A DNA stretch of 32,000 nucleotides from Candidatus Methylomirabilis limnetica (GCF_003044035.1 NZ_NVQC01000013.1:120001-152000), one strand, 5' to 3'. Positions 9,993-17,979 are shown, counted from the stretch's first letter. A program made the numbers and translations. The notes: generated by a model not told the origin, from the sequence alone.

Positions 9993-11360
9993 TCAGCTCT
10001 TCTCGCGGATCTGTAGTTCTTTGATCAGGCGGGCAAGGTCGGTCCGCTGCAGGCCAAGGGCGCTCGCAGCCTTCGATTGATTGCCTCCTGAGCGGTACAG
10101 GGTCTCCCGGATGACCTGTCGTTTGTAAGCCACCACAGTTTCATGGAAGTCGCGAGGCGCTTCTCCAGCAGGCGACTCCGGTGCGCCGGCAAGGACAGTC
10201 AGTGGGAGGTCTTCCGAGGTGATCCGATCGCGGGTACTCAGGACAACGGCCCGCTCGATAAAATTCGCCAGCTCTCTCACATTGCCTGGCCAGTGGTAGT
10301 GTCGCAGTAACTCCCATGCGTCCGGAGTGATCTCCTTAATTCGCTTTCCCATGCGGTCGCAGTATTGGGTGAGGAAGTGATTGGTGAGGGAGACAATGTC
10401 CTCCAGGTGGTCTCGGAGTGGGGGGAGCGAGACGGTAATGACATTGAGACGGCGGTAGAGATCCTCACGGAACAACCCCTCGCGGATCGCCTTGTCCATG
10501 CGGCGATTCGTGGCGGCAACGAAGCGGAGGTCGACCCGTATCGGCCTCGTCCCGCCGACCCGCTCAAACTCGTGCTCTTGAAGGACACGGAGCAGCTTTG
10601 CCTGTAGGTGCGGCTTCAGATCGCCGATCTCATCGAGGAAGGCCGTCCCGCCGTCGGCCAGCTCCAGCTTCCCGCGCTTGCGCTGGTGCGCGCCCGTAAA
10701 GGCTCCGCGCTCATGCCCGAACAAATCGCTCTCAAGCAGATCTTCCGATACTGCCACGCAGTTCACCACCACAAAGGGCTGATCCCGCCGCTGGCTCCAT
10801 TGATGGATAGCTCTCGCGAATACCTCCTTGCCGGTTCCAGTCTCCCCCTGCAGGAGAATCGTAGAACTTCTGGCCGCCGCTCGTTTGGCGGCCTCGATGG
10901 CATTCAGGATCGACGGGCTGTGCCCGATGATCGGCCGATCTTGTCCCCTGACCTCCCCTGACAGTAGGAGGTTGTCCCGCTTCAACGCCTCCCGTTCTAG
11001 CGCCTTGCCGATAACCACTTCCAGATGCCCCGGGCTAAACGGTTTGGTCAAGAAGTCGTACGCGCCGGCCCGCATCGCCTCCACGGCCTTATCGATGGTG
11101 CCATACGAGGTCATTACGATAGTTGTCGTCTCGATCCCCTCATCGCGGATCGCCTTCAGCACCTCGAGGCCACTCTTCTTCGGCATCATAAGATCAAGGA
11201 GGGTGATGGTCAGCGAGTTCTCTCTCAGCCGCGTCAGCGCCTGCACACCATCTTCTGCCTCCACGACCTCGAACCCCATGGCCTTCAGCCGATCACGCAC
11301 CACCTCCCGAATGTCGGGGTCATCGTCCACGATCAGGATCTTGCTATGACTGGGGATCAT
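9993..11360 (-). CDS. sigma-54-dependent Fis-family response regulator (NtrC/AtoC type)
   Basis: 455 aa. REC domain (ILIVDDD...LLDLMMPKKSG), AAA+ Walker A GETGTGKE, sigma-54 contact loop GAFTGA, and a C-terminal Fis-type HTH (AASALGLQRTDLARLIKEL). Confidence 0.92.
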   Translation of the reverse strand: MIPSHSKILIVDDDPDIREVVRDRLKAMGFEVVEAEDGVQALTRLRENSLTITLLDLMMPKKSGLEVLKAIRDEGIETTTIVMTSYGTIDKAVEAMRAGAYDFLTKPFSPGHLEVVIGKALEREALKRDNLLLSGEVRGQDRPIIGHSPSILNAIEAAKRAAARSSTILLQGETGTGKEVFARAIHQWSQRRDQPFVVVNCVAVSEDLLESDLFGHERGAFTGAHQRKRGKLELADGGTAFLDEIGDLKPHLQAKLLRVLQEHEFERVGGTRPIRVDLRFVAATNRRMDKAIREGLFREDLYRRLNVITVSLPPLRDHLEDIVSLTNHFLTQYCDRMGKRIKEITPDAWELLRHYHWPGNVRELANFIERAVVLSTRDRITSEDLPLTVLAGAPESPAGEAPRDFHETVVAYKRQVIRETLYRSGGNQSKAASALGLQRTDLARLIKELQIREKS

Positions 11361-11448
11361 TGTGATTGCTCCGCGTCAGCGAGGGTTGTCGTTACATTGG
11401 TCTGCGCCAGGGGCCGCCTGGGCAGGGTCATGTAGTGCCCCCCTGAAA

Positions 11449-11545
11449 GTCATTGGGGACGACGCGCTGCATGAGCGACACGCACTCGCGCCGAAGTCAC
11501 TTCCGCATACGGCGTTGTCTCTACCATCTGGTTCTCCCCATGAGG
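11449..11545 (-). pseudogene. decayed 3' fragment of a hepT-like gene
   Basis: 11449-11500 aligns by eye with the 3' end of the intact hepT (15636-15687), with a few mismatches and one 1-nt indel. Weaker similarity continues up to the edge of the repeat. No intact reading frame. Confidence 0.45.
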
Positions 11546-11735
11546 CTAACAGATATTAGCCGACAGTTCTTAGGCGGACTCTACGATATTGGTGTGTGCA
11601 ATGCAACACGATACTCGTGACACACTCCTTGGAACACTCTTGAACAAAACGCTTGCACGGGAACCCACTGTTGGATAGCCTGTTCGTCAGCTAGGGATGA
11701 TACCCAATGCCTCAGGTGTGGACCCGTCGCCCCCT
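11546..11735. repeat. ~190-nt repeat, copy A
   Basis: Starts CTAACAGATATTAGCCGACA and ends CGCCCCCT. Shares conserved blocks with copies B (15422-15612) and C (16408-16597). Confidence 0.9.
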
Positions 11736-11893
11736 TGCCCCAGATTCCCGGTGGCCAGCAGGGTACTTGCAGGTGGCCATAGACTCTTTTCTCCAGGCGC
11801 TGACAAACGATTCGGTGGTTGCTGTGGTAGAGGCCGACCGGTTGCTCGGTGGGGCCGTCAGGTGTTGGCCATAGCAACGGAGGTGAGAGACTG

Positions 11894-12376
11894 ATGCGGC
11901 GAGCGTTGACCATCGCGGGCTCCGATTCCGGCGGTGGAGCGGGGATCCATGCCGATCTGAAAACGTTCACAGCCCTTGGTGTGTTCGGGACATCGGCGAT
12001 TACGTCGGTTACGGCCCAGAACACGATCGGCGTCCATGGGGTGCACGATCTGCCGCCGGAGTTCGTAGGGGGCGCCAGATCGACTCGGTCCTTGACGATA
12101 TCGCCATCGACGTGGCCAAGACCGGGATGCTTTCGAGCGCAGCGATCATCGAGGTGGTCACGGCGAAGGTGAAGGCGCATGCGATCCAGCGGTTGGTAGT
12201 CGATCCGGTGATGGTGGCCAAGAATGGGGCGCCGTTACTTCGGTCTGATGCCGTGAACGCGCTCATTGAGCGTCTGCTGCCCCTTGCCCTTGTTCTCACG
12301 CCGAATGTGCCGGAGGCTGAGGCGCTCACAGGGCTGACGATCACTGAGCTCAATGGGATGCGTCAGGCGGCGCGGC
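11894..12376 (+). pseudogene. thiD: thiD 5' fragment, 3'-truncated and frameshifted
   Basis: [25 protein letters not shown]... parallels the intact thiD. There is a 2-nt insertion at about 12067-12072 (GTAGGGGGCGCCAG vs GTCGGGCGCCAG). The reading continues in another frame (ORF 12112..12393). Homology stops at about codon 160. Confidence 0.85.
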
Positions 12377-12406
12377 CTACAACAGGCGGATAGAAAGGTG
12401 GAAGAC

Positions 12407-13837
12407 ATGAATGTGCGTTCAATCCTGACAATTGTAGCCACGCTCGCGCTGGCGTTACCGGCACAGGCGGACGATGAAGGCGTCGCGCTGACGATCTACA
12501 ATCAGAGCTTCGGGGTCGTGCGCGAGAAACGAGGCGTCGAGATCAAGGACAAGCTTGGCGTGGTCCGGTTCACGAACGTGGCGGCGCAGATTGACGGCAC
12601 GAGCGTGCAATTCAAATCGCTCACCGATCCCGCCGCGCGTGTGCTGGAGCAGAACTACGAGTATGACCTCGTCTCCGCGGACAAGCTCCTGCACAAATAC
12701 ATCGACAAACAGATCGCGGTGCTCACCAAGGACGGCTCGCGCTATTCCGGCAACCTGATGAGCTTCGACGCGAACCAACTCGTCATCCGGCAGTACGGGG
12801 AGAAGGGCGAGATCGTGATGGTGCAGCGCGGCGACAACGTCAAAGACATCCAGTTTGGCGCGTTACCGGAAGGATTGATTGCGAAGCCGACGCTGGTGTG
12901 GAAGCTCGCGACAGAGAAACCAGGCACGCATCTCGTCGAGGTCGCCTATCAGACCGGCGGCTTGAACTGGCAGGCCTCTTACAACGCCGTGCTCAACGCC
13001 AAGGATACCGGGCTGGACCTCGGCGGCTGGGTGACAATCAACAACACGTCCGGCGCGACCTATAAGGACGCGAGGCTCAAACTTATTGCCGGAGACGTGC
13101 GCCGGGTCCAGCCGCCGTCTCGCGCATACGCCATAAAAGGCGCGATGGCGATGGAAGCGGCCGCAGCGCCACAATTCGAGGAAAAAGCGTTCTTCGAGTA
13201 TCACCTGTACACGCTGCAACGGCCCAGCACGGTCGCCGACAACCAAACGAAGCAGATCGAATTGCTTAAGGCGGCGGACGTACCGGTCAAGAAGGTGTTG
13301 CTCTACGAGGGCGCGCCGCAATTCCGGTTCTACGGTGGACTGCACACGTCGGCGGAGTATGGCAGCCAGGAGTTCAACAAGAAGGTCAACATCATCATCG
13401 AGGTCAAGAACTCGAAGGACAATCACATGGGCATGGCACTGCCGAAGGGCAAGGTGCGACTCTACAAACGCGACGAGGCCGATGCGGCGCTGGAATTCAT
13501 CGGCGAAGACGAGATTGATCACACGCCGAAGGACGAGACGATCAAGCTGCACATCGGCGACGCGTTCGACGTCGTCGGCGAACGCAAGCGCACCGATTTC
13601 CGCGTGGACAGCGGCCGGCACGTCATGACCGAGAGCTTCGAGATTCGCATTCGCAACCACAAAGACGAACCCGTGGACGTGCTCGTCAAAGAGACGCTCT
13701 ATCGCGGGAACAACTGGGAGATCACCGCGTCGAGCCACAAGTGGACCAAATTCGACTCCGGCACCATCCACTTCCCGATCACCGTAGCCAAAGACGGCGA
13801 GCGGGTCGTGACGTACACGGTGAGATATACGTGGTGA
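12407..13837 (+). CDS. secreted DUF4139-like protein
   Basis: AAAGGTGGAAG RBS precedes the ATG at 12407. Signal peptide MNVRSILTIVATLALALPAQA/DD. The N-terminal LTIYNQSFGVVREKR...IDGTSVQF pattern resembles DUF4139/DUF4140 proteins from memory. The CDS call is strong; the family call is moderate. Confidence 0.75.
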   Translation: MNVRSILTIVATLALALPAQADDEGVALTIYNQSFGVVREKRGVEIKDKLGVVRFTNVAAQIDGTSVQFKSLTDPAARVLEQNYEYDLVSADKLLHKYIDKQIAVLTKDGSRYSGNLMSFDANQLVIRQYGEKGEIVMVQRGDNVKDIQFGALPEGLIAKPTLVWKLATEKPGTHLVEVAYQTGGLNWQASYNAVLNAKDTGLDLGGWVTINNTSGATYKDARLKLIAGDVRRVQPPSRAYAIKGAMAMEAAAAPQFEEKAFFEYHLYTLQRPSTVADNQTKQIELLKAADVPVKKVLLYEGAPQFRFYGGLHTSAEYGSQEFNKKVNIIIEVKNSKDNHMGMALPKGKVRLYKRDEADAALEFIGEDEIDHTPKDETIKLHIGDAFDVVGERKRTDFRVDSGRHVMTESFEIRIRNHKDEPVDVLVKETLYRGNNWEITASSHKWTKFDSGTIHFPITVAKDGERVVTYTVRYTW

Positions 13838-14060
13838 TGTCTGAGGCGTTGAAGCTTTTAGCCGAGTGAAGCGAGTCGCCGCTCACCCAAGGCGGTCTGG
13901 CAAGACTGGTGAAGTCCAGCCAGTCCAGGGTCGCCAAGATGGAAGCCGACGATCCCTCGGTGTCTTGGACCTGCTCATTAGAACCCTTCTGGCGCTGGGA
14001 GCCTCGAGTCGCGAGATAGCGAGAACCTTCGCGCCCTCTCGTCGCGCCACGGCGGCCTAA
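13837..14060 (+). pseudogene. XRE-family HTH (antitoxin-like) pseudogene
   Basis: The ATG overlaps the DUF4139-like stop (TGATG). It reads MSEALKLLAE, then an in-frame TGA (13867-13869), then SESPLTQGGLARLVKSSQSRVAKMEADDPSVS. A 1-nt frameshift near 13962 is needed to continue LDLLIRTLLALGASSREIARTF. Confidence 0.6.
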
Positions 14061-14134
14061 CGCTCCGCTTCATCTGCGGGCGCTCACGCCTCATCAATGG
14101 CGAGCCGTCAACTGCAAGCGGTAGTTAGGTCTTT

Positions 14135-14461
14135 TCACGAAAACAGTTCCGCCAAAGTCGAGAAAACCGCCGACTGTGTTTGCGGCCCAACTTTCCCCAA
14201 TCTTTTCACCAATCTTGATTTGTCGACAGTTCGAATCTGGTCGAGAACAATCTGGGCTTGCTTGCCTTGGGAAACACAAGAAACCCGAGAGGGATAATCT
14301 CGCCCCTTCGTGGTCATTGGGGCAACTATGACTGTGGCAATGAAACGGTTTAATTCGTCCGGCGAGATGATCAGACAGGGGCGACTCTTCTTGATCTCGC
14401 TTCCAACAGTAGGGTCCAGGTTTACCAGATAGACTTCAAACCGTTTCACTTCCATTCCCAT
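14135..14461 (-). CDS. mazF: MazF/PemK-family endoribonuclease toxin
   Basis: 108 aa: KRFEVYLVNLDPTVGSEIKKSRPCLIISPDELN...VAPMTT...VLDQIRTVDKSRL. The start overlaps the mazE stop. Confidence 0.9.
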   Translation of the reverse strand: MGMEVKRFEVYLVNLDPTVGSEIKKSRPCLIISPDELNRFIATVIVAPMTTKGRDYPSRVSCVSQGKQAQIVLDQIRTVDKSRLVKRLGKVGPQTQSAVFSTLAELFS

Positions 14462-14703
14462 TCTTCCTTATCCCAGGAAGTCTGGCTAGCCGCATCCGCA
14501 TCCAACAACTTGTCATCGCCCCTTGCCGCCATGGCCCGGAACTTTTCCGCCCAGCCTTCGCGCGGCTTTTTCACTGAGCGAATGATAATCTGGCGGTCCC
14601 CAACCTGAAGCTCAACCTCGCCACTCAGATGGGTCTGCTCCAACACCACTTTGGGGATTCTAATGCCTTGGGAATTACCGATGCGAACGATGCTTGCCTT
14701 CAT
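14446..14703 (-). CDS. mazE: AbrB/MazE/SpoVT-family antitoxin
   Basis: 85 aa: MKASIVRIGNSQGIRIPKVVLEQ (SpoVT-AbrB fold signature). GGAGG RBS. Overlaps mazF by 16 nt. Confidence 0.88.
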   Translation of the reverse strand: MKASIVRIGNSQGIRIPKVVLEQTHLSGEVELQVGDRQIIIRSVKKPREGWAEKFRAMAARGDDKLLDADAASQTSWDKEEWEWK

Positions 14704-14733
14704 CGAATACCACCTCCAACCAACCTTGATATA

Positions 14734-14767
14734 ATTACAATGTAATCACATCGTACTCTTTCGTCAA
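14734..14767 (-). promoter_or_regulatory. putative mazEF promoter with overlapping palindromic operator
   Basis: On the - strand: TTGACG (plus 14762-14767), 17-nt spacer, TACATT (plus 14739-14744). The palindrome ATTACA-A-TGTAAT (14734-14746) overlaps the -10 box. The site lies about 30 nt upstream of the mazE start. Confidence 0.45.
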
Positions 14768-14787
14768 TAGTGAAATAGGCCCAACGT

Positions 14788-15411
14788 TCACGTCAACCGG
14801 CGCGCGCCGCTCTTGCGCGCGTCCGTGTTGGGCGTGCTGTTAGGGTGCCCTCGCTGCTCAGTGGGCTTGCCGACAATTGAAGGCGTCGACGCAAAGTCCC
14901 AGTTGTCTTCATACACCGAAGCCAGCGGTGCAGGGACGGCGATCGGGCGATCATTGGGAAGACCGATGCGAAATAGACGCCGGTCGCTGGTGCGGTGCGC
15001 CGGGTTGTCTTTGAGCCATAGTTGATGCTCGTCTCGCACGTATTTGGCAACGACGACACTCGGGACGATAAAAAATCGCAACGCGTACTTCGACAACTCA
15101 GTCCGGCTCGAATTGATGTGCACGAAGCAGTAGAACAGGTTCGGGTCAATGACGCCTTCGTGCTTGGCGCTCATCTGCCAATCGGTAACGAATGTTTCAA
15201 AGAGCCTTGAATCACTGTCGCGGGTGCGAGTCTCGAGGTTTGTCTTAACCTCGACTTCGTAACGTGCGCCCCTGCGGGGGTCGAGCACCAGGATGTCGAT
15301 GTTCTTCGTATGACCCAGAGTCATGCCTGCGTCGTAGCCCCGCAGTGTCAATTGCGATAGGACGGCAAATTCTCCCGCGAGCCCTACTGAATTGGGTGGA
15401 ATTCGCGCCAT
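14788..15411 (-). CDS. hypothetical protein with a PD-(D/E)XK nuclease-like N-terminal core
   Basis: 207 aa with an ATG start. GLAGEFAVLSQLTLRGYDAGMTLGHTKNIDILVLDP..GARYEVEVKT fits the G..GE...(D)...(E-x-K) layout of Hjc/PDDEXK-type nucleases. C-terminal tail is low-complexity and basic. No obvious SD sequence. Confidence 0.6.
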   Translation of the reverse strand: MARIPPNSVGLAGEFAVLSQLTLRGYDAGMTLGHTKNIDILVLDPRRGARYEVEVKTNLETRTRDSDSRLFETFVTDWQMSAKHEGVIDPNLFYCFVHINSSRTELSKYALRFFIVPSVVVAKYVRDEHQLWLKDNPAHRTSDRRLFRIGLPNDRPIAVPAPLASVYEDNWDFASTPSIVGKPTEQRGHPNSTPNTDARKSGARRLT

Positions 15412-15421
15412 ATTGAGTGCC

Positions 15422-15612
15422 CTAACAGATATTAGCCGACACTTCTTGGACGGGCTTTACGATATTGGTGCGTGCTATACCAACACGATACTCGTGACAC
15501 ACCCCTTGGAACATCCTTGAACAAAACGCTTGCACAGGAACCCCCTGTTGGATAGCCTGGTCGTCAGATATGGATGATACCCAACACCTCAGGCGTGGAC
15601 CTGTTGCCCCCT
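15422..15612. repeat. ~190-nt repeat, copy B
   Basis: Same ends and blocks as copies A and C. By my hand alignment it is about 88% identical to A. It lies ~10 nt from the start of the 207-aa ORF and 11 nt from the hepT stop. Confidence 0.9.
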
Positions 15613-15623
15613 CCAACGCGGTG

Positions 15624-15986
15624 TTAGCCCACCTCGTCATTGGGGGCGACGCAAGGCATGAGCGACATGCACTCGCGCTGAAGCACCGATACATCGTGTT
15701 CGACGATCGCCCACACGACAGCGTCATCCACGGTCGGGTACTCGTGGGTAAGCTGGTTGCGGAAGTCCACGATCCTCCGTGCCCGCGTGATTGCATCGAA
15801 GGCATCCGGTGCGACTCGGCCGAGTGCCGCGGCCGCCTCTCCGATGATGATGAACTCGCGCTCGACCGAAGAGCGGACGAGGCGATTGCTTTCATACCCG
15901 GCGAGATTAAGGTCTCGAACCGCGACGGTGATCGCGTCGCACGACTCGATGATGTCGGCCAAGTAGGCACGCGCATCACGCGGCAT
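15624..15986 (-). CDS. hepT: HepT (DUF86) HEPN-domain toxin
   Basis: 120 aa with the Rx4HxY motif in FRNQLTHEY. Overlaps the upstream mntA by 11 nt. Confidence 0.88.
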   Translation of the reverse strand: MPRDARAYLADIIESCDAITVAVRDLNLAGYESNRLVRSSVEREFIIIGEAAAALGRVAPDAFDAITRARRIVDFRNQLTHEYPTVDDAVVWAIVEHDVSVLQRECMSLMPCVAPNDEVG

Positions 15987-16284
15987 AAAGCATCTGCCTC
16001 GTACGCTCGATGTCGCGGGCGATGTACGGGTTTTTGATGGCCCCCACCATGACCAAGTCGATCTTCAGGCCTAATACGGTCCGGAGTTCTTCCAGCATGC
16101 CGAAGTAGGCCTCGACTCGAGCGTACGGCTCCATCGGCCCGAACTCGACCAACAGGTCCAGGTCGCTCTCATCCGGTTTGAAGTCATCATGCAAAGCCGA
16201 ACCGAACGCGTACAGCCGTACCACACCATGGCGCACGCAGGCCGCAGCTATCGCTTGGCGATTGTTCTCGAGAACACCGATCAT
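15976..16284 (-). CDS. mntA: MntA-type nucleotidyltransferase antitoxin
   Basis: 102 aa with the minimal NTase motif FGSALHDDFKPDESDLDLLV (GS...DxD). GGGAGA RBS 6 nt upstream of the ATG. Confidence 0.88.
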   Translation of the reverse strand: MIGVLENNRQAIAAACVRHGVVRLYAFGSALHDDFKPDESDLDLLVEFGPMEPYARVEAYFGMLEELRTVLGLKIDLVMVGAIKNPYIARDIERTRQMLYAA

Positions 16285-16346
16285 GACGTGTCTCCCACGT
16301 TCATCGTACCTACAGCGGGTGAGGCGCGCACCGGCCAGGAACGATC

Positions 16347-16407
16347 CGCGCCGAAGTCACTTCAGTGTGCGGCGTTGTCTCTACCCTCTGGTTCCCCCCC
16401 GATGGGG
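16347..16407 (-). pseudogene. second decayed hepT-like fragment
   Basis: CGCGCCGAAGTCACTTC..CGGCGTTGTCTCTACC.TCTGGTTC matches 11487-11545. It lies between repeat C and the mntA upstream region. Confidence 0.4.
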
Positions 16408-16597
16408 CTAACAGATATTAGCCGACACTCCTTGAATGGACTCTACGATATTGATGCATGTAAGGCAACACGATACTCATGACGCGCCAATTGGACAACT
16501 TTTGAACAAAACGCTTGCACAGGAAGCGACCGTTGGATAGCCTGTTCGTCAGATATTGATGATACCCAACAACTTAAGCGTGGACCAATCGCCCCCT
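16408..16597. repeat. ~190-nt repeat, copy C
   Basis: Same ends and blocks as copies A and B. By my hand alignment it is about 82% identical to A. Confidence 0.9.
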
Positions 16598-16836
16598 TTA
16601 ACCGAGATCCCCGGTGGCCAGCATGGTACTTGTAATTGGCCATGGGGTCTTTTCTTCAGGCGGAGACCAACGATCCGGCGGTTGCTGTGGCAGAGGTCGA
16701 CCGGATGCTGGATGGGGCGGGCAGTCTCCGGTGGAGTACGTGGACGATATCCAGAGGACGTCGGCCGGGCAAGCACCCGTGCGTGGTTTGCTATGTCCCG
16801 CCAGTATAGTGTCCCATAAGTCCCTTTACAGTGATT

Positions 16837-16951
16837 GTCATTCTGGGCTTGACAAGCCTGCCCCGTACTTGATACGGGGGAATCCAGTCTTTCTGTGCTG
16901 GATTCCCGCTCCCCGCTTAAGGCATGCGGGGACAAGCTTCGCGGGAATGAC
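16837..16951. repeat. palindromic MITE-like element inserted in the thiD leader
   Basis: GTCATTC...GAATCCAG arm (16837-16887) and its inverted partner CTGGATTC...GAATGAC (16898-16951). Each arm contains its own CCCCG..CGGGG hairpin. The element is absent from the paralogous leader at 11736-11893. Confidence 0.75.
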
Positions 16952-16980
16952 GGCTTCGGTACAACGGAGGTGATAAACCG

Positions 16981-17775
16981 ATGCGGACGGCGCTCACGAT
17001 AGCAGGCTCCGATTCCGGGGGTGGAGCGGGGATCCAGGCTGATCTGAAGACCTTTGCCGCCTTGGGTATCTTCGGGACATCGGCGATTACGTCGGTCACT
17101 GCCCAGAACACGGTCGGTGTCCAGGGGGTGTACGATCTGCCGCCGGAGTTCGTCGGGCGCCAGATCGACTCGGTCCTGGAAGATATCCACATCGACGCGG
17201 CCAAGACCGGGATGCTTTCGAGCGCAGCGATCATAGAGGTGGTCGCGGAGAAGGTGAAGGCGTATGCGACCATGCGGCTGGTGGTCGATCCGGTGATGGT
17301 GGCCAAGGGTGGGGCGTCGTTACTTCGGCCTGATGCCGTGAAGGCGCTCGTCGAGCGTCTGCTGCCCCTTGCCCTTGTTCTCACGCCGAATGTGCCGGAG
17401 GCTGAGGCGCTCACAGGGCTGACGATCACCGAGCTCAATGGGATGCGTCAGGCGGCGCGGCAGATCCACGGCCTCGGCCCGAGGTACGTTGTCCTCAAGG
17501 GGGGCCACCTTGGCGGTCGCGCGATCGATCTCCTGTTCGACGGAAGTCACTTCACGGAGTTGGATGCCGAGCGGATCGATACGCCGCACACCCACGGGAC
17601 CGGATGCGTCTTCTCTGCGGCCATCACCGCGGAGCTGGCCAAGGGCAGTCCGGTTCCAGAGGCAGTTGCCATCGCCAAGCGCTTCATCACGGCTGCAATC
17701 CACTATGGGTTTCGGCTTGGCAAGGGATTCGGTCCGACCGATCCGATGGCGGCCGCAAGGAGCCTCACGCCATAA
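16981..17775 (+). CDS. thiD: bifunctional hydroxymethylpyrimidine kinase / phosphomethylpyrimidine kinase
   Basis: 264 aa: [59 protein letters not shown] upstream. Confidence 0.92.
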
Positions 17776-17808
17776 GAACAGGGTAGAGGGTTTAGGGTAT
17801 ATTGAATC

Positions 17809-17979
17809 ATGCGCAACCGGACTCTGCAACGATGGGACGTCTCACCGCAAGAGGCCATAGCGATCCAGCTCACACTGCGTTCCCATCTTTGTCTGCACGG
17901 TACAGGATCTTTTGCCACAGTCGCAGGGGTAGATATCGCGTATGATGAGACCACAAAGTTGATGTACCCTTCATAGGGT
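17809..17979 (+). pseudogene. nfi: N-terminal remnant of endonuclease V
   Basis: A 56-codon ORF, below the cutoff of the supplied track. MRNRTLQRWDVSPQEAIAIQLTLRSHL...FATVAGVDIAYDE resembles the first ~50 residues of Nfi (W..s..EA..iQ..L...V....v.G.Dv.y). It stops after PS; full-length Nfi is about 220 aa. Confidence 0.5.

Follow-up and report, generated by a model that had tools for sequence, protein, structure and literature searches.

Some integrative elements, such as phage 21 and e14 at icd, put their own sequence in place of the end of the gene that they target. Homology-facilitated illegitimate recombination (HFIR), by definition, uses a homologous anchor at one end of the incoming DNA and an illegitimate join at the other, and in E. 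coli, DNA with one-sided homology mostly gave single-crossover products, with 109- to 950-bp duplications of the homologous locus (PMC3240628). At type VI secretion system (T6SS) and Rhs loci, sequential displacement leaves orphan fragments (PMC5361080). Here, we analyze a 32,000-nt stretch of Candidatus Methylomirabilis limnetica (hereafter the window), in which two diverged direct copies of the region in front of thiD, the gene for the hydroxymethylpyrimidine (HMP)/HMP-phosphate (HMP-P) kinase, bracket a set of accessory genes. The feature is real and belongs to ordinary genome plasticity: recombination has left a scar here, in a further instance of a type of event already known. We read the locus as a chromosomal, non-mobile “5′-displacement” scar, sited in the islet in front of thiD, which varies among Ca. 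Methylomirabilis genomes. The explanation we favor, to which we give about an even chance, is a homology-anchored insertion, in which one homologous and one illegitimate join would have stacked alternative upstream alleles; decay and gene conversion would have come afterward.

With Campbell-type and HFIR events, the locus as we read it shares the combination of one homologous exchange with one nonhomologous joint, and a partial direct duplication flanking foreign DNA. It differs in being natural and old, with decay and gene conversion since, and whereas classical HFIR usually deletes recipient DNA, the thiD locus duplicates it. The likeness to Rhs, contact-dependent inhibition (CDI), and T6SS arrays lies in new modules that enter by way of a conserved anchor and shift older, truncated gene ends, along with their partners, out of place, producing strain-variable strings of orphans, a part played here by truncated thiD remnants (thiD′) and extra copies of an element that lies upstream of thiD. 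In those arrays, however, 3′ ends are displaced downstream, whereas here 5′ ends are displaced upstream, and the anchor is a housekeeping kinase gene rather than a toxin. As with phage 21 and e14 at icd, the intact gene would be partly incoming, the insert has a displaced and diverged fragment at its far end, and the exchange point is marked by an identical tract, but the thiD locus has no integrase, its breakpoint varies by lineage, and its homology is very long, including upstream noncoding DNA and a toxin-antitoxin pair.

Local alignment places the two collinear paralogues at 11487-12376 and 16347-17461, with identity of about 82-95% distributed over the following blocks:

left 11487-11539 (+ strand), right 16347-16399 (+ strand): 89%; the spacer upstream of mntA on the right and its homologue on the left
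left 11540-11734, right 16402-16596: 81.5%
left 11735-11846, right 16598-16709: 82%
left 11903-12066, right 16990-17153: 86%
left 12069-12184, right 17154-17269: 91%
left 12189-12376, right 17274-17461: 95%

The element and leader are thus at 82%, and identity then climbs toward the joint, by way of 86% and 91%, to 95%. Similarity then stops at 12376/17461, where 19 of the next 24 bases differ, and there is one nonhomologous joint at 12376/12377. The original prediction made from this DNA had described the two segments as collinear paralogues with strongly graded divergence, the left thiD as truncated at its 3′ end where similarity ends and carrying a 2-nt frameshift, and the right thiD as complete, and the alignments bear out each of these statements; the end it gave for the left copy, 12376, also stands, and that for the right, 17460, is one base off (17461). 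The parts of the two copies are as follows:

11437-11496, − strand: C-terminal remnant of hepT, the left edge of the duplicated block, with 88% nucleotide identity to 15636-15683 and a matching translation
11738-11893, + strand: left leader, without about 224 nt of the right leader
11894-12376, + strand: thiD′ pseudogene, codons 1-160, with a 2-nt insertion at 12067-12068
12268-12376, + strand: near-identical tract, one mismatch in 109 nt against 17353-17461
16600-16980, + strand: right leader, including 16710-16961 and an element resembling repetitive extragenic palindromic (REP) sequences
16981-17775, + strand: intact thiD (HMP/HMP-P kinase; Pfam Phos_pyr_kin, E = 1e-99), with orthologues in Ca. 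Methylomirabilis

Corrected for the frameshift, thiD′ encodes 160 residues, which match the right ThiD at 87.5% identity. The hepT remnant translates as LRRECVSLMQRVVPND, against LQRECMSLMPCVAPNDEVG* at the C-terminus of the intact HepT; it meets the spacer at CGCGCYGAAG, a 10-nt microhomology found at 16347 too. Its presence in the left copy means that hepT-mntA is part of the duplicated unit and not of the cargo; the left copy corresponds to the right block 15627-17461 minus about 663 nt (the 5′ part of hepT and mntA). The unit is therefore longer than originally proposed, its left edge lying at 11437 rather than 11487, and of the hepT-like remnants predicted in both segments only the left one exists, the right segment showing just the 10-nt microhomology. 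In the leader, 252 nt of the right copy (16710-16961) stand opposite 28 nt in the left, and because relatives carry this stretch, comparison among them indicates that the left copy probably lost it by deletion.

The source is a metagenome assembly, and the copies have a 77-nt perfect run in common, so that two strain variants collapsed or joined at the 109-nt tract could in principle have produced an assembly chimera, a concern raised with the original prediction. The same order is, however, found in three independent assemblies from different assemblers. Contig L002 (99.1% identity over 12209-17798) reads through the left joint to beyond thiD, L003 (99.9%) spans 14537-17798, and L098 (94.8%) also crosses 12376/12377. 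Final k-mers are typically longer than the identical run, and a joint present in L098 at 95% identity must be inherited. A chimera is thus exceedingly improbable.

The near-identical tract next to the joint invites a different explanation, in which the locus is the remnant of a site-specific integrative element that targeted thiD, brought a replacement 5′ end, and lost its integrase, with the 109-nt tract as its att core. A tract of this kind abutting one junction does resemble attL/attR plus an element-borne gene end, and toxin-antitoxin and nuclease genes abound in the cargo. We nonetheless consider such an element very unlikely. The single mismatch of the tract falls at 12345, and the probability of one mismatch or fewer, given a background of 12.9%, is 5e-6; yet the last 41 nt of thiD′ in L098 differ from the window at several bases. 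Because the end of thiD′ has already diverged in L098, the near-identity in the window reflects a later gene conversion and not a relic of the original exchange. Gene conversion near the junction had been proposed originally and is now well supported, and the count of one differing base was right, with the right-hand coordinates again shifted by one base (17353-17461). The thiD breakpoint, moreover, differs in every lineage, leaving no common att site, and the homology reaches about 0.9-1.8 kb upstream of thiD, far beyond an att site. Pfam searches of all island open reading frames (ORFs) and the other large ORFs tested found no integrase, transposase, or other recombinase in the island or the 32-kb window, as had been noted originally, and ARAGORN found no tRNA or tmRNA there. 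Comparison of the cargo with plasmids and phages gave nothing except a 120-nt match to mazF.

The identity between the copies also bears on how stable the island is. By segment of thiD, identity between the copies is 81.7% (nt 1-120), 91.7%, 87.9%, and 99.1%, and the longest perfect runs, of 77 and 31 nt, lie downstream of the left frameshift, the longest upstream run being 26 nt. RecA-type loop-out would therefore usually yield a frameshifted thiD, which, judging from the sequence, argues against easy loss of the island. The suggestion that the identical tract serves as a substrate for loop-out thus needs correcting, in that the product would keep the left 2-nt frameshift, leaving thiD dead, and the tract is not a neutral excision route.

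The layout recurs in the genus. Seven Ca. Methylomirabilis lineages have the thiD upstream region on a contig, and four of the seven contain a thiD 5′ remnant, each with different cargo:

window: thiD′ (160 codons), then the cargo that starts with DUF4139, then thiD
L094: DUF523-DUF6308-element-thiD′ (~57 codons), then cytochrome c and DUF1264, then element-thiD
L006: element-thiD′ (~25 codons), then a glycosyltransferase/Mur ligase/CapK block, then thiD
L011: CapK block-thiD′ (~98 codons), then helix-turn-helix (HTH), DUF4160/DUF2442, DUF523, and DUF6308 genes, then element-thiD

The left part of L094 is 91% collinear with the functional arrangement of L011, and L006 and L011 contain the same two blocks in reversed order (A-thiD′-B-thiD versus B-thiD′-A-thiD). 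By gene order, the layouts of L094, L006, and L011 read as stacks of different upstream alleles and not as A-A tandem repeats. The thiD′ breakpoints differ among lineages, at about codon 25 (L006), 57 (L094), 98 (L011), and 160 (window), as expected of illegitimate joins. A metagenome scan with ThiD returned only 50-65%-identical loci of other phyla, which were uninformative.

Between the two aligned segments in the window, past the joint, lie the following:

12377-12406, + strand: first bases past the nonhomologous joint, including the DUF4139 ribosome-binding site; same joint in L098
12407-13837, + strand: secreted DUF4139 protein (Pfam)
13837-14061, + strand: dead HTH gene (Y4mF/HipB-type antitoxin-like), with a premature TGA and a 1-nt deletion relative to the intact L002 copy
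14135-14703, − strand: mazE (14446-14703) and mazF (14135-14461), a type II toxin-antitoxin pair (Pfam)
14788-15411, − strand: 207-aa PD-(D/E)XK-fold orphan (D39, E54, K56), with its start ~10 nt from element copy 2
15624-16284, − strand: hepT (15624-15986) and mntA (15976-16284), a type VII toxin-antitoxin-like pair (Pfam)

The DUF4139 start codon, at 12407, follows the joint by 30 nt. All of the nearest named homologues of this protein are from Verrucomicrobiae (75-80% identity; metagenome proteins reach 84%), no Methylomirabilis name appears among its top 120 homologues, and its gene matches a non-NC10-like contig, L099, at 83.6% nucleotide identity across the coding sequence only; in L099 the gene stands in an ordinary chromosomal context. 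From these matches, DUF4139 looks like a foreign, Verrucomicrobia-like gene acquired across phyla. The second-frame ORF of thiD′ stops at 12391-12393, just ahead of the DUF4139 ribosome-binding site, so the displaced thiD promoter region may drive DUF4139, and the conservation of element copy 1 would be in keeping with this. MazF (PF02452, E = 1e-29) and the AbrB/SpoVT-type MazE (PF04014, E = 2e-7) are encoded by genes that overlap by 16 nt, with GC contents of 49% and 55%, against 58% for the window. HepT and the MntA-type nucleotidyltransferase both exceed their Pfam cut-offs, the NCBIfam equivalog scores being 34 bits against a cut-off of 60, and MntA has the PADLOC match PDC-S09.

The 207-aa orphan belongs to a family with 578 representatives. 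In its alignment D39 and K56 are near-invariant, E54 being read from the window protein, and an alignment-based model (predicted local distance difference test [pLDDT] score of 87) gave Foldseek matches to the homing endonuclease I-Ssp6803I, SPARDA nuclease domains, EcoRV, and Hjc. The Foldseek probability was 1.0 for I-Ssp6803I, EcoRV, and Hjc, with modest TM-scores of 0.42-0.59; a single-sequence model was unusable (pLDDT of 36), and Pfam PDDEXK_5 matched weakly in just 4 of 43 relatives. On the modeled structure together with its D...(D/E)xK motif, we assign the protein a PD-(D/E)XK fold.

The gene content thus agrees with what had been predicted, including DUF4139, an AT-richer mazEF, a PD-(D/E)XK-like orphan, a dead XRE-family HTH gene, and hepT-mntA. 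What does not hold is the idea of a single insert of about 4 kb (12377-16346) captured as a unit. The cargo is composite: hepT-mntA lies in the duplicated unit, the HTH gene is dead in the window and intact in the sister strain L002, and L098 (95%) has the thiD′-DUF4139 joint and diverges after 13882 into a different toxin-antitoxin-like segment.

Our favored account of the event runs as follows. A resident allele with the order ntrC ... hepT-mntA-spacer-upstream element-leader-thiD would have received DNA of a closely related strain, whose own upstream allele would have read DUF4139-HTH- ... -element-hepT-mntA-spacer-element-leader-thiD 5′ part. This DNA would have been fixed by a homologous exchange, within thiD or downstream, together with a single illegitimate join at resident codon 160 (12376/12377), possibly through a single crossover of a circularized fragment or an HFIR-type event, and the resident 5′ block would have been displaced leftward as a truncated copy. 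The left copy would then have decayed by the 2-nt insertion, a ~663-nt microhomology deletion of hepT-mntA, and the ~224-nt leader deletion; the cargo would have turned over, with toxin-antitoxin modules swapped and the HTH gene dying; and gene conversion would have homogenized the junction-proximal 110-190 nt of both copies. This order of events, and the roles of donor and recipient, we infer; the duplication and its ends, its age against the strain splits, the mixed cargo, the lack of recombinase, att, or attC features, and the recurrence in other lineages are observed. We favor the insertion because of the allele stacking in L094, L006, and L011, the foreign cargo (a Verrucomicrobia-like DUF4139 and a low-GC mazEF), and the deeper divergence of the unconverted 5′ parts, and because of the precedents of one-sided homology in E. 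coli (PMC3240628) and of the T6SS/Rhs displacement arrays (PMC5361080).

Less likely, though a live candidate, is an in situ tandem duplication of a ~5.1-kb segment (equivalent to 12377-17461, with the joint at 17461/12377), in which most of DUF4139-hepT was deleted from the left unit and the rest decayed; a variant would start from two full-length thiD paralogues, the left one truncated later by deletion. Duplication in place would account for the matching order hepT(-mntA)-spacer-element-leader-thiD in both copies, and would suit an old junction and a locus without mobility genes. The left unit, which shows the collinearity and the one joint, nevertheless holds only ~0.9 kb of the 5.1-kb period. 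At least two extra large deletions would be needed, ending exactly beside the ntrC promoter region, and no genome with two full 5.1-kb tandem units was found. The stacking of different alleles in L094, L006, and L011, instead of A-A repeats, also speaks against it, as does the state of the upstream element, of which the copy beside the working gene (copy 3) is decayed and copy 1 conserved. A homology-anchored insertion of the Campbell or HFIR type, by contrast, agrees with what the copies share, a homologous block of 0.9-1.8 kb with an abrupt end at 12376/17461 and one illegitimate joint.

Divergence cuts both ways. Over codons 1-124, the two thiD copies differ by a synonymous divergence (dS) of 0.27 and a nonsynonymous divergence (dN) of 0.10 (dN/dS of 0.38), whereas their comparisons with L010 and L005 give dS of 0.40-0.51 and dN/dS of 0.11-0.15. 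A copy-copy dS below that to the nearest sampled lineages, and a dN/dS that fits one copy drifting since the split, would suit tandem duplication, but the unconverted 5′ parts diverge more from each other than from L010: over thiD nt 1-120, the copies are 81.7% identical to each other and either is 88.3% identical to L010, and in the element and leader left and right are 82% identical. The lower copy-copy dS could be caused by gene conversion. In DUF4139, dS between the window and L098 is 0.14, and with the joint shared the joint must be at least that old. A homeologous donor, part of the original proposal, is therefore not required, as a junction age of dS 0.14 or more can cover most of the left/right divergence (dS 0.27; ~18% in noncoding DNA). 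That proposal had offered Campbell-type capture or an old tandem duplication; its topology is right and both remain candidates, in contrast to capture as a single unit.

Several points weigh against the insertion that we favor. Scans of genome and metagenome collections found neither a donor allele nor an uninterrupted recipient allele. The hepT-mntA-spacer-element order kept in both copies is explained by duplication in situ as well, the copy-copy dS is lower than the dS to L010 and L005, and because the joint predates the split of L098 from the window, the event may be older than most of the divergence. Branch-specific changes fail to separate the models (6 synonymous and 7 nonsynonymous on the left, 8 and 11 on the right); a raw-count reading in which the left copy is under selection was set aside, finer counts showing both branches relaxed and no discrimination. 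Finally, the left flank, with ntrC, is rearranged relative to other genomes, giving a history more complex than one insertion.

The upstream element occurs three times in the window:

11546-11737, + strand: copy 1, with 1 unique substitution in the 134-nt core
15421-15613, + strand: copy 2, with no leader or thiD behind it, 90% core identity to copy 1, and 3 unique substitutions
16408-16599, + strand: copy 3, the most decayed, with 12 unique substitutions in 134 nt

AACAGATATTAGCCGACA and TTGGATAGCCTG delimit the 134-nt core. Searches with nhmmer located the element directly upstream of thiD in every sampled Methylomirabilis locus, namely, L005, L006, L011, L094 (twice), L095 (9787-9929), and L096/97 (9744-9930 in L096), and in L005, L095, and L096 it precedes thiD without a thiD remnant; a genome-collection scan with a 22-base element pattern recovered one relevant contig only, L011. 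Given this position across the sampled genus, and with no structure or Rfam match, we regard it as a conserved thiD-proximal element and not as a mobile repeat or attC site. Most simply, to judge from its placement, it would be a promoter or operator region; where an extra copy lies, there was once a “front of thiD.” Copy 3, before the working thiD, is the most decayed, and copies 1 and 2 stay near the genus consensus.

A comparison with integron arrays and clusters of attC sites lacking integron-integrases (CALINs) is natural, as direct element copies of ~130-190 nt separate short cassettes that include toxin-antitoxin genes and, by eye, the core ends resemble RYYYAAC/GTTRRRY boxes. The element differs from attC sites, however, in folding no better than shuffles (z of −0.8 to +0.2) and showing no covariation, in being single-copy before thiD in most genomes, and in having no accompanying IntI in the window. 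Other identities were also tried and rejected. An attC-type DNA hairpin found no support in four copies on both strands (z of −0.77 to +0.18 against shuffles), nor did a structured RNA in RNAalifold on eight homologues and both strands (−13 to −15 kcal/mol, no real covariation). Nothing in the window reached Rfam gathering thresholds, and the element had no Rfam match, whether to a thiamine pyrophosphate (TPP) riboswitch, small RNA, or omega-RNA; for the thiD leader, no TPP riboswitch match was obtained at E ≤ 5 in 11300-17100. A small ORF is disfavored by a minus-strand amino acid identity of ~72% by eye, below the 82% nucleotide identity, and by a 1-nt indel in the plus-strand frame of copy 2. 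A strict sigma-70 scan found no promoter inside the element, a terminator-type hairpin occurs in copy 3 only, and a supposed fourth copy left of the hepT remnant aligned no better than shuffles.

Two unrelated nuclease-type genes start ~10-20 nt from the left edge of the element in different genomes, the I-Ssp6803I-like PD-(D/E)XK gene at copy 2 (window 14788-15411) and an HNH endonuclease gene in L095 (8900-9766); in other genomes this position holds DUF6308, DUF523, GDT1, or DUF2264. By analogy, the locus might be the 5′-end counterpart of Rhs/T6SS C-terminal displacement, in that the element would mark a genus-wide recombination hotspot with serially stacked upstream islets, and free-standing homing-type nucleases abutting the element (PD-(D/E)XK at copy 2, HNH in L095) may promote the stacking; alternatively, it would be an undescribed cis-regulatory unit whose working copy no longer stands before thiD. 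We think this pair of ideas unlikely. In the right thiD leader, the REP-like palindromic element (window 16810-16960) has a weak, subthreshold match to Rfam “Transposase-2 RNA” at 16859-16912 on the minus strand (22.6 bits against a gathering threshold of 42.7); the L011 leader contains a related stretch, a short piece matches L005 6631-6669, and an 88-nt insertion inside the L005 element copy looks palindromic by eye.

The surroundings of the islet are those of a chromosome. The best named homologues of both ThiD and the NtrC-type regulator are from Ca. Methylomirabilis (NC10), and a metagenome contig from the European Nucleotide Archive (L001) is 100% identical to the window. Of the ORFs tested outside 11.4-17.0 kb, most have housekeeping or regulatory roles (alaS, psd, pssA, leuA, asd, truA, a multicopper oxidase, a dsbA-like gene, ntrC, a short-chain dehydrogenase/reductase [SDR], glgP, a PAS kinase, and 2-oxoacid dehydrogenase E1/E2). 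The core of the left flank is

9993-11360, − strand: NtrC-type sigma54 response regulator (Pfam)

and its side is collinear with Methylomirabilis contigs L102 (87.6% nucleotide identity, to 11428) and L100 (to 11452), diverging beyond. Judged against these two genomes, native DNA upstream of ntrC extends to about 11430-11452, and the duplicated block begins right at its end. The adjacency of ntrC and thiD is specific to the window lineage: in GCA_028870115 ntrC (beside lexA and imuA-imuB-dnaE2) and thiD are on separate contigs, and elsewhere in the genus gcvTHP, toxin-antitoxin genes, and DUF523 precede thiD. A larger rearrangement therefore has a breakpoint at the islet, and the ntrC-like to thiD segment, originally taken as the orthologous context, is not the ancestral neighborhood of thiD in the genus.

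Downstream, the synteny thiD-nfi-SDR-glgP is conserved among relatives; the upstream side is the variable islet. Between thiD and SDR, where every related locus has an endonuclease V gene (nfi) of 167-236 aa, the window has a 55-aa N-terminal remnant (17809-17976), and alignments with the sister assemblies L002 and L004 break at 17798-17801. Past SDR, L095 (GCA_028870115) carries a reverse transcriptase gene (RVT_1) beside an HTH gene (14245-15443), which could belong to a retron or another reverse transcriptase-based system. In Ca. M. lanthanidiphila (L096 13378-14713/L097 9159-10494), just past SDR come an IS200-type Y1 transposase and an MntA-like nucleotidyltransferase, so the other side of thiD is variable too in some genomes.

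The thiD locus leaves the current understanding of recombination unchanged. It offers a clean natural case in which toxin-antitoxin pairs, a nuclease, and a cross-phylum gene enter a chromosome without mobile-element machinery, the scar left behind being a truncated copy of the 5′ end of a housekeeping gene. In annotation, thiD′ fragments and extra element copies should be treated as pseudogenes and relics, not as extra thiamine genes or mobile repeats. Modest further interest lies in the recurrence of the process at thiD in several lineages and in the conserved upstream element. For a group without genetics and with few closed genomes, the thiD upstream region is a useful marker of strain-level recombination.

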